Shown: piece after piece, positions 39,832 to 41,494 of the stretch | Numbering within the stretch: the first letter of the stretch is position 1 | Layout of the letters: each line of letters begins with the position of its first letter | Source of the DNA: a phage | Sequence record: PZ445523.1 | Length of the DNA stretch: 64,000 nt | Direction: 5' to 3' (one strand) | Notes under the pieces: model-generated | Seen by the model: the letters and a program-made list of their open reading frames with translations, nothing else | What the model was told of the DNA's origin: nothing | The model's database searches: none | Translations under genes and position numbers: made by a program

Positions 39832-40141
39832 CTTGCGGCAACCTTGTCGGGGTTCCACCTGCTAAGGCAAGTGTTTGTACGAAACGCCGGGATTCGAACC
39901 CGGTTATTAAGCAGTTGACGCTACTCAATATTTTTAAAAGGCCATATCTCGACCATATCCGAACGTTCCGTCAAAAACGCTACTCGACTTACGGCAAAGA
40001 TATTTCCTCGAATCGATAATTCGGTGCGCCGTTTCTGCTGTGATGTAAGAGGGCATCAATAAACGCAAAGATTATTAACGCAATTCCTTACTCAGGGAAC
40101 ATCAGTCCGACGACTTACCGGTAGCGACCCGGCTTCTTGTC
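39832..40141 (-). ncRNA. Small stable RNA region (T4 species 1/2, rnaC/rnaD-like) with tRNA-like element
   Basis: No ORF; perfect T-arm-like CCGGGTTCGAATCCCGG on the minus strand (plus 39887-39905); lies between tRNA-Arg and a strong terminator. Confidence 0.45.
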
Positions 40142-40218
40142 TGGTCGAGGCAGAAGGATTCTAACCTTCAACCAACGGATTAGAAATCCGTTGCTCTATA
40201 CAATTGAGCTATGCCCCG
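40142..40218 (-). tRNA. tRNA-Arg, anticodon UCU
   Basis: Hand-folded cloverleaf: acceptor CGGGGCA/TGCCTCG, anticodon loop TTTCTAA, T-loop TTAGAAT, encoded CCA. Confidence 0.7.
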
Positions 40219-40221
40219 TAA

Positions 40222-40887
40222 TTAAAATTTCATTTTTCGACCTTTAAACCATCCTTCTGGAATTGGGTCAGTTTTCTTAATACGTTTAGAAACTTTTTCA
40301 TCTAATGAATGAATCCACATCATACCAAATTGGGAATTCTTTTCACCTTTCTGGTGATTATTTTTAGCGTGAATTTCTTTCATTTTATTAATAGTTTCAA
40401 GAGTATGATGCTTATTTAAAAATCTGCTATTATTTAAAAATTTTTCTTTGTATTCAGGAGTTGACCATAAACGTTTAAATACATTTGAACCATTTTTACG
40501 ATATTTTTCTTGAAGTAAAATATCATTTTCAAAACGTGACTTAAACGATTTAGCTCCTTTTAAGCTAGCATCTTTCTTCTGGTTTAGCATTCCAGGAATA
40601 TTTACATGATCCCATCCGCCTTCACCGCCAAGTTTTAAATTATACACATCTGGTCTATTTAAAAACTCTTCTGTGACAATATTTTTCTCGGCTTCAAGCA
40701 TAGATTCTTTATCATCAAAATACTCTAATATTTCTTTAGAAAAATTTTCTATACCATATTTATCTTGGGCTCTTTTTAATAATTTACCAGAACCCATATA
40801 TCCATCATCTAAATTTTCGGTAGAATGCACACCAATATAAATTTTATTATTAATTTTATTTGTTATTTTATAAGTGTAATAGAACAT
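40222..40887 (-). CDS. segB: GIY-YIG homing endonuclease SegB
   Basis: 221 aa; YKITNKINNKIYIGVHS...GSG GIY-YIG module; sits inside the tRNA cluster as in T4. Confidence 0.8.
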   Translation of the reverse strand: MFYYTYKITNKINNKIYIGVHSTENLDDGYMGSGKLLKRAQDKYGIENFSKEILEYFDDKESMLEAEKNIVTEEFLNRPDVYNLKLGGEGGWDHVNIPGMLNQKKDASLKGAKSFKSRFENDILLQEKYRKNGSNVFKRLWSTPEYKEKFLNNSRFLNKHHTLETINKMKEIHAKNNHQKGEKNSQFGMMWIHSLDEKVSKRIKKTDPIPEGWFKGRKMKF

Positions 40888-40928
40888 AAATATCTCCTAT
40901 TTCTAAGAGTATTTATGTTCTCAAAATA

Positions 40929-41002
40929 TGACCCAGACCAGATTTGAACTGGTAACCTTTCCCTTATGAGGGGACTGCTGCTAACCATTGAGCTACAGGG
41001 CC
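40929..41002 (-). tRNA. tRNA-Ile, anticodon CAU
   Basis: Anticodon loop CTCATAA, T-loop TTCAAAT; D-stem and one acceptor pair imperfect by eye; no encoded CCA. Confidence 0.55.
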
Positions 41003-41003
41003 T

Positions 41004-41079
41004 TGGTGCTGATTGACGGAATCGAACCGCCGACCTTCTCATTACAAGTGAGTTGCTCTACCTACTGAGCTAAATCAGC
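41004..41079 (-). tRNA. tRNA-Thr, anticodon UGU
   Basis: Acceptor GCTGATT/AATCAGC, D-arm GCTCAGTAGGTAGAGC, anticodon loop CTTGTAA, T-loop TTCGATT, encoded CCA. Confidence 0.75.
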
Positions 41080-41081
41080 AA

Positions 41082-41168
41082 CGGAGGCGATAGGATTTGA
41101 ACCTATGAGTCGCCGGAGCGACTGCCGGTTTTCAAGACCGGTGCATTAAACCACTCTGCCACGCCTCC
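41082..41168 (-). tRNA. tRNA-Ser, anticodon UGA
   Basis: Acceptor GGAGGCG/CGCCTCC, anticodon loop CTTGAAA, long variable arm, T-loop TTCAAAT. Confidence 0.75.
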
Positions 41169-41170
41169 AG

Positions 41171-41244
41171 TCTCCGTGGCAGGATTTGAACCTACGACAT
41201 TCTGCTCCCAAAGCAGACGCTCTACCAAACTGAGCTACACGGAG
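41171..41244 (-). tRNA. tRNA-Pro, anticodon UGG
   Basis: Acceptor CTCCGTG/CACGGAG, D-arm GCTCAGTTTGGTAGAGC, anticodon loop TTTGGGA. Confidence 0.75.
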
Positions 41245-41254
41245 TAAATTAAAT

Positions 41255-41328
41255 TGGAGCGGATAATGAGAATCGAACTCACATCATCAGATTGGAAGTC
41301 TGAGGTAATGCCATTATACGATATCCGC
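41255..41328 (-). tRNA. tRNA-Gly, anticodon UCC
   Basis: Acceptor GCGGATA/TATCCGC, anticodon loop CTTCCAA, T-loop TTCGATT, encoded CCA. Confidence 0.75.
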
Positions 41329-41333
41329 AAATT

Positions 41334-41420
41334 TGGTACGAGAAGTGGGACTCGAACCCACAAGGAAATCATTCCGCAGCATTTTAAGTGCTGTGCCTTT
41401 ACCAATTTGGCCATTCTCGC
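41334..41420 (-). tRNA. tRNA-Leu, anticodon UAA
   Basis: Acceptor GCGAGAA/TTCTCGT, anticodon loop CTTAAAA, long variable arm, encoded CCA. Confidence 0.75.
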
Positions 41421-41421
41421 G

Positions 41422-41494
41422 CTGGGAATAAAGGACTCGAACCTTTGCATCTAGCAGTCAAAGTGCTATGCCTTACCAACTTGGCTAATTCCCA
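41422..41494 (-). tRNA. tRNA-Gln, anticodon UUG
   Basis: Acceptor TGGGAAT/ATTCCCA, anticodon stem TAGCA/TGCTA with loop CTTTGAC, T-loop TTCGAGT. Confidence 0.75.

Follow-up and report, generated by a model that had tools for sequence, protein, structure and literature searches.

The tRNA gene cluster of phage T4 has been known since the 1970s: eight tRNA genes are accompanied by segB, which encodes a homing endonuclease, and by two stable RNAs, rnaD (species 2 RNA) and rnaC (species 1 RNA). The T4 cluster gives rise to one precursor transcript, ~1.75 kb long, that stops after species I RNA (PMC2330249), and its Pro-Ser dimer, in which neither tRNA has an encoded CCA, is a classic case of tRNA processing (PMC11143913), while the roles of RNAC and RNAD are stated as unknown (PMC3014915, PMC9697503, PMC12685909). 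Here we describe the same kind of locus at 39832-41494 of a 64,000-nucleotide stretch of phage DNA (sequence record PZ445523.1), the whole of which is referred to below as the window. Judged by its sequence, this interval is almost certainly the tRNA operon of a Tequatrovirus (a T4-like phage), with a mechanism that would follow from homology to T4. The locus is thus a T4-type cluster that is already known, and the sole addition made here, beyond the accessible literature and Rfam, is a tRNA-like fold predicted for rnaC.

Two T4 references were used for comparison, AF158101 (region at 70.9-72.6 kb, subclusters I and II) and the original entry X03016; rnaC, rnaD, segB, the promoter, the stem-loops and the terminator are annotated in these records and can be transferred one by one to the window. 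The minus-strand order is tRNA-Gln, Leu, Gly, Pro, Ser, Thr and Ile, followed by segB, tRNA-Arg, rnaD, rnaC and the terminator, the same as in T4. Ten of the 11 components are 89-100% identical to T4, the exception being tRNA-Arg, which gives no alignment with the T4 allele. The two loci also share their strand, the logic of their spacing, the pattern of CCA-encoded and CCA-less tRNAs, the promoter, the segB hairpin and the terminator. Across the 2-kb region 822 phage records match, T4 being 95-96% identical over 95% of it, and in the database record search even the closest records to the whole region are only ~95-96% identical. This identification marks the window as part of a T4-like phage.

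The ARAGORN prediction for the window comprises exactly eight tRNAs, every one of them on the minus strand at 40142-41494, and Rfam gives eight matches to RF00005 (53.9-72.9 bits against a gathering score of 29, E-values ≤8e-9) and nothing else above threshold across the 64 kb. A cluster of eight tRNAs interrupted by segB had been proposed in a first-pass annotation made by hand folding; it is borne out by ARAGORN, Rfam and the mapping of T4 features, order and anticodons being the same in both searches and ARAGORN placing the boundaries at most 1-3 nt away, and the hand folding proved accurate. The first gene, tRNA-Gln (UUG; 41422-41494, ARAGORN 41494-41421), is identical to T4 at 73/73 positions and stands 1 nt before tRNA-Leu (UAA; 41334-41420; 85/87), after which comes tRNA-Gly (UCC; 41255-41328; 73/74). 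tRNA-Pro (UGG; 41171-41244, ARAGORN 41244-41170) matches T4 at 57/64 positions over the locally aligned stretch and is separated by a 2-nt spacer from tRNA-Ser (UGA; 41082-41168, ARAGORN 41169-41081; 87/87), and tRNA-Thr (UGU; 41004-41079; 73/76) and a tRNA with a CAU anticodon (40929-41002; 74/74 to T4 tRNA-Ile) complete the series before segB. Beyond segB lies tRNA-Arg (UCU; 40142-40218). A script that read the bases 3' of each discriminator found CCA encoded after Leu, Gly, Thr and Arg and absent after Gln (G then CGC), Pro (A then CUG), Ser (G then UUG) and the CAU tRNA (A then UAU); this is the CCA-less set of the first-pass annotation, and the T4 pattern is identical. In the 61 long open reading frames (ORFs) of the window, whose GC content is 34.9%, each of the eight NNA codons that match these tRNAs ranks first or second within its family, which fits the accepted role of such tRNAs in supplementing the host tRNA pool.

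Signals for transcription are found at both ends of the cluster. A predicted middle (MotA-type) promoter lies at 41564-41590 on the minus strand (TATGCTT at 41590-41584, -10 TATTAT at 41569-41564), transferred by position from 'PM2' of X03016 in a stretch nearly identical to T4. At the other end, a structured 3' trailer with a strong intrinsic terminator occupies 39799-39877 (minus strand), with a stem at 39827-39804 and then a T run; it was recognized by a terminator scan, by its fold (z = -4.6) and by the 'pot. terminator' of X03016. Both the promoter hexamers and the terminator are at T4-homologous positions. The sequence holds nothing that contradicts a T4-type operon, to which transcript, processing and modification are carried over from T4. 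On this model, one ~1.75-kb transcript would run from the middle promoter upstream of tRNA-Gln to the terminator after rnaC, and host enzymes would cut this precursor into the eight tRNAs, rnaD and rnaC. RNase P would form the 5' ends, 3' exonucleases would trim the trailers, and the host CCA-adding enzyme would complete Gln, Pro, Ser and Ile. The eight tRNAs would then read A-ending codons common in the AT-rich genome, the CAU tRNA reading AUA once modified with lysidine, and rnaC, a tRNA-shaped stable RNA in a tRNA slot, would probably be matured like a tRNA.

rnaC lies on the minus strand at 39878-40016, after rnaD and before the terminator, and is identical to T4 rnaC at 136 of 139 positions; its mature ends rest on two GenBank annotations, of 137 and 139 nt. 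Its structure comes from RNAalifold and from pair counting, applied to 23 and to 14 homologues; the 23 distinct sequences were found in phage records, IMG/VR and metagenomes, and four more lineages were then added. The phage records include the genera Tequatrovirus, Karamvirus, Kanagawavirus, Moonvirus, Gelderlandvirus and Marfavirus, as well as Klebsiella and Citrobacter phages without a stated genus. All homologues are 138-141 nt long, and in most of the relatives fetched rnaC begins 5-6 nt after a tRNA and, where another tRNA follows, ends 5-12 nt before it.

The covariation-supported model gives rnaC a tRNA-like fold, in which an acceptor-like stem is stacked on a T arm. According to RNAalifold, the acceptor-like stem joins the two ends of the RNA (5' side 40015-40009, 3' side 39886-39880; minus strand, as for all elements of the fold) through the pairs C2-G137, G3-C136, R4-Y135, C7-G132 and G8-C131, with two U-U mismatches between the third and fourth of these. 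Directly beside this end helix lies the predicted T arm at 39903-39887 (rnaC nt 114-118 with 126-130, loop UUCGAAU), where the T-arm sequence CCGGGTTCGAATCCCGG noticed in the first-pass annotation is indeed found. A 3-bp helix (nt 9-11 with 76-78) leads into a long hairpin at 40003-39944 with the loop UUGACG (39974-39969), and a second hairpin (nt 87-112; 39930-39905) carries the loop CGUCAA (39920-39915). The model has 37 pairs, for which 99.1% of cells are paired across the 23 sequences, compared with ~42% when the partners are slid; 21 of the 37 pairs show compensatory change, and none of 500 shuffles reaches the observed values. The broader set with the four further lineages returns the same fold, with 38 pairs and 23 compensatory changes. 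The central hairpin keeps its pairing even in several genera where its sequence is entirely different. The loops UUGACG (nt 43-48) and CGUCAA (nt 97-102) are mutually complementary and invariant outside the Klebsiella-phage group, where they change jointly to UUGGCG and CGCCAA; this single covarying event suggests a loop-loop contact. Compensatory pairs together with invariant loops point to selection on RNA structure rather than on codons.

Other folds and affiliations of rnaC were considered. An alternative acceptor stem, pairing ACGGAACG with the 3' end, lies behind the 95-nt 'tRNA-Met' that ARAGORN calls in phage PG7; it was rejected, as three phages (Q7622, Moon and EcS1) have an A-C mismatch in it, and KMB17, PEi20 and the Klebsiella group lack it. 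The helix between the 5' and 3' ends is kept in 23 of 23 sequences, with one pair switching from A-U to G-C. In tmRNA and in YrlA-type Y RNAs the tRNA-like domain resembles rnaC, with an acceptor-type helix stacked on a canonical T arm (loop UUCGAAU in rnaC) and a large insert that replaces the D and anticodon arms. The acceptor helix of rnaC is formed by the 5' and 3' ends, as it is in tmRNA. A reading of rnaC as a small tmRNA was nevertheless rejected: its third acceptor pair is A-U or G-C, not G-U, it has no conserved reading frame and is only ~139 nt long, and ARAGORN makes no tmRNA call. Rfam gives no tmRNA or YrlA match for rnaC even at E ≤10, and an exact-pattern scan of 185,579 bacterial and archaeal species genomes, which bears on a bacterial origin, found no counterpart. 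As to its 3' end, after the end helix the genome reads U-ACA-A in most phages and U-CCA-A in the Klebsiella group, and X03016 ends species 1 RNA at the U preceding ACA. Mature rnaC may carry U-CCA; if it does, rnaC would be a further CCA-less substrate in the phage of the window.

rnaD (40023-40140, minus strand) directly follows tRNA-Arg, with 114 of 115 aligned bases identical to T4 rnaD, and is separated from rnaC by a 6-nt spacer. Among 16 distinct homologues it keeps an invariant core, made of the 5' hairpin RCCGG-GUCGCUA-CCGGY and a long-range helix (28-34 with 111-118), and its central hairpin is variable. This arrangement is not that of a tRNA: RNAalifold gives the 5' hairpin and the long-range helix, with no acceptor/T-arm geometry, and an encoded 3' CCA as a feature of rnaD was likewise discarded, since the ...CACCA of T4 is replaced by CACCG in the window and by CACAG in other phages.

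For the stretch downstream of tRNA-Arg, 39832-40141, the first-pass annotation had suggested small RNAs of the rnaC/rnaD type on the grounds of a perfect T arm and the lack of an ORF, and sequence identity now equates it with T4 rnaD and rnaC. There is indeed no ATG-initiated ORF, and the only ORFs, of 34-47 aa, start with TTG. One may argue that the TTG-start ORFs of 44-47 aa, which overlap the stretch, and the 'hypothetical protein' annotated there in many phage records speak for small-protein coding, or that the stretch is decayed tRNA pseudogene debris, given how weak its Rfam matches are: a covariance search at E ≤10 over 39700-40300 returns tRNA-Arg and noise only (tRNA-Sec, 16.6 bits, E = 2), and no Rfam family covers rnaC or rnaD. 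However, the length of rnaC (138-141 nt) and its fold are kept across several genera with 21-23 compensatory pairs and two invariant loops, the rnaD core does not vary in 16 sequences, and both rnaC and rnaD have been detected as stable RNAs in T4 infection (PMC9697503; T4 record annotations), which makes either debris or a coding function highly improbable. Two functional RNAs remain the preferred reading.

The distribution of the two RNAs among relatives differs. One Dhakavirus and one Gaprivervirus carry rnaD without rnaC, and the reverse holds for phages of Karamvirus, Kanagawavirus and Moonvirus. CLB_P2 has no rnaC, its rnaD being joined directly to the trailer and terminator, and in VR20 an ORF stands at the expected position of rnaC. 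By this sequence distribution, rnaC and rnaD are separate modules. Klebsiella-phage loci (locus L023 at 626-649, and two more) contain a 24-nt match, 92% identical, to the rnaD core GUCGUCGGACUGAUGUUCCCUGAG, ~450 nt upstream of rnaC, which may be a diverged rnaD. Moreover, many phage records label the two RNAs wrongly: as 'hypothetical protein', as a 95-nt 'tRNA-Met' (PG7, locus L004, 1554-1648; SonariX), or under tRNA-Lys or tRNA-Phe labels.

The CAU tRNA carries C4-G69 and C5-G68 in its acceptor stem, pairs that are TilS determinants in E. coli tRNA-Ile2. Its anticodon (CAT in the DNA) and its ARAGORN label, Met, could mean an ordinary elongator or initiator tRNA-Met. However, both T4 records annotate a tRNA-Ile to which it is identical at all 74 positions, and T4-like CAU tRNAs labelled Met by software bear the signatures of lysidine-modified tRNAs recognised by IleRS and are regarded as tRNA-Ile of that kind (PMC1524935), so that a tRNA-Met is very unlikely here. 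The same identity and the same report uphold its earlier assignment as a lysidine-type tRNA-Ile that reads AUA, the modification itself being inferred.

A different question is how the four CCA-less tRNAs are completed. The first-pass annotation had named, as a speculative candidate for a CCA-adding enzyme of the phage, the nucleotidyltransferase encoded at 23764-24777 (minus strand, 337 aa). This protein is the orthologue of T4 NrdC.11 (330/336 aa identical, 98%) and belongs to the RlaP family (Pfam PF10127, E = 1.7e-11; PHROG 388, 'nucleotidyltransferase'). It shares with class II CCA-adding enzymes the Pol-beta-superfamily nucleotidyltransferase signature, near its N-terminus, and those bacterial RlaP enzymes that have been characterised extend RNA 3' ends by one or two nucleotides (preprint PMC12776372), both of which would suit a phage-encoded CCA-adding activity. 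Yet it falls in RlaP, not PolyA_pol, with no match to the PolyA_pol/CCA-adding Pfam family, to NCBIfam models or to PDB sequences. In addition, the activity described for bacterial RlaP is fill-in of damaged RNA 3' ends before ligation, as part of RNA repair, not templated CCA synthesis (preprint PMC12776372). T4 itself (PMC11143913, citing Deutscher et al. 1974) depends on the host tRNA nucleotidyltransferase although it has NrdC.11, and hence the orthologue should not be able to complete these tRNAs either. We therefore see almost no likelihood that the phage's own enzyme does so, and the host CCA-adding enzyme stays the expected one; a part for the NrdC.11 orthologue in tRNA repair is possible. 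At 22680-24777 (minus strand) a NrdC.10 homologue (378 aa, sub-threshold Pfam AAA/STAND NTPase matches) overlaps the RlaP-family gene by 53 nt, and the pair may form an RNA-repair or conflict module.

Three differences set the cluster apart from T4, namely the body of tRNA-Arg, changes in tRNA-Pro and the spacer between tRNA-Ser and tRNA-Thr; all are present in other phages and none is new to the databases. In place of the T4 tRNA-Arg(UCU) body stands an unrelated allele, cleanly swapped between identical flanks and adjoining segB. Alleles of the window type, 94-99% identical, are common among other T-even phages, some of which have them beside a homing-endonuclease gene, directly after it in, for example, vB_vPM_PD112 and AV116; identity to the host's annotated tRNA-Arg genes is 60-80%. 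The T loop of the tRNA, UUAGAAU, is atypical in lacking C at position 56, and the D loop has a single G. tRNA-Pro differs from T4 at ~10 positions, mostly by paired changes that keep the anticodon, T and acceptor stems paired, and, at a smaller scale, tRNA-Leu has G1-U72 where T4 has G1-C72. The Ser-Thr spacer is UU (41081-41080) in the window and UAAUUUU in T4. It is not unique to this phage, as ~31 records share it, RB32 and RB33 among them; these two and similar Tequatrovirus isolates have segB and are identical to the window over 61 nt, from the tRNA-Ser 3' end across the UU spacer into the start of tRNA-Thr. Two of these features weigh against a full transfer of the T4 mechanism. First, tRNA-Arg is not the T4 allele and its T loop is unusual, so that the case for its being functional rests on an Rfam score of 69.7 bits and on wide conservation in other phages. 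Second, with a spacer of 2 nt instead of 7, the processing cuts may be made in an order other than that of the T4 Pro-Ser paradigm.

The ORF that separates the CAU tRNA from tRNA-Arg is segB (40222-40887, minus strand), which encodes a GIY-YIG homing endonuclease of 221 aa. The protein scores 28.3 bits with Pfam PF01541 (cut-off 22.6), matches the homing endonucleases of PHROG 314 with E = 3e-51 and is 98% identical to T4 SegB over aa 19-221 (tblastn); at the nucleotide level, the gene agrees with T4 segB at 654 of 666 positions. A 41-nt hairpin at 40881-40921 (minus strand; fold -19.4 kcal/mol, z = -6.8) buries its Shine-Dalgarno sequence and AUG and matches both the stem-loop in X03016 and the hairpin described in T4 (20.2 kcal), which occludes the segB start (PMC2330249). 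SegB recognises a T-loop motif of tRNA genes (PMC2330249, PMC13096335) and cuts preferentially just 3' of CCAR, and its homing spreads segB and neighbouring tRNA genes into segB-less relatives (PMC2330249). In T6, SegB drives tRNA gene amplification that leads to escape from the Septu defence (PMC13096335). By analogy, segB of the window would be kept nearly untranslated by its start-site hairpin, and SegB would cut the tRNA genes of co-infecting relatives, so that segB and the tRNA genes beside it spread.

The site of the SegB cut invites a comparison of tRNA 3' ends. The tRNA regions of T2L, RB1 and RB3 lack segB and hold extra tRNA-Met, Tyr and Asn genes and ORFs, and tRNA-Ser of T2L encodes CCAG, the site of the cut (PMC2330249). 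Among the loci compared, the 3' flank of tRNA-Ser (41080-41082 in the window) is polymorphic. In a small, non-independent sample, the four sequences with segB, two of which are T4 records, all lack the tRNA-Ser CCA and read TAATTTT, TAATTTC or TT, and the eight segB-less loci all encode CCAG or CCAA there. Because SegB reportedly cuts just after CCAR, loss of the encoded CCA at tRNA-Ser may be linked to carriage of segB, which suggests a selfish-element explanation for some phage tRNA genes without CCA.

Further observations concern the SegB target. The tRNA genes on either side of segB (Ile AGTTCAAATCT; Arg GGTTAGAATCC) deviate from the published core motif GGTTCRANTCC, which is matched by Gln, Leu, Pro, Ser, Thr and rnaC; this departure could be a self-protection of the homing site. 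A second GIY-YIG, SegB-like ORF of 239 aa, 26.5% identical to SegB (tblastn), lies at 21964-22683 (minus strand), immediately downstream of the NrdC.10 homologue. In T4 the gap at this site, from nrdC.9 to nrdC.10, is only ~95 nt long, and the second ORF is thus probably a further free-standing homing endonuclease insertion.

At the other edge of the locus, homology to T4 ends just beyond the operon terminator (~39795), and the gene that follows differs from T4, a 153-aa ORF at 39300-39761 (minus strand; PHROG 2280, function unknown) standing in place of e.8. In some relatives the terminator sequence is duplicated ~0.5-0.9 kb further downstream.

It is conceivable, if rather doubtful at present, that rnaC is a dedicated tRNA mimic rather than a leftover, holding a tRNA slot in at least eight T-even genera. 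If that is true, it would add a fifth to the CCA-less substrates on which the host's tRNA maturation enzymes act, and it could serve as a decoy or sponge for a host factor that binds tRNA, for example a tRNA-cleaving defence nuclease. The structural model offers testable handles on rnaC in the acceptor stem, the T arm, the loop-loop pairing and the 3' end, and it would support a new RNA family and a cleaner annotation of phage genomes.

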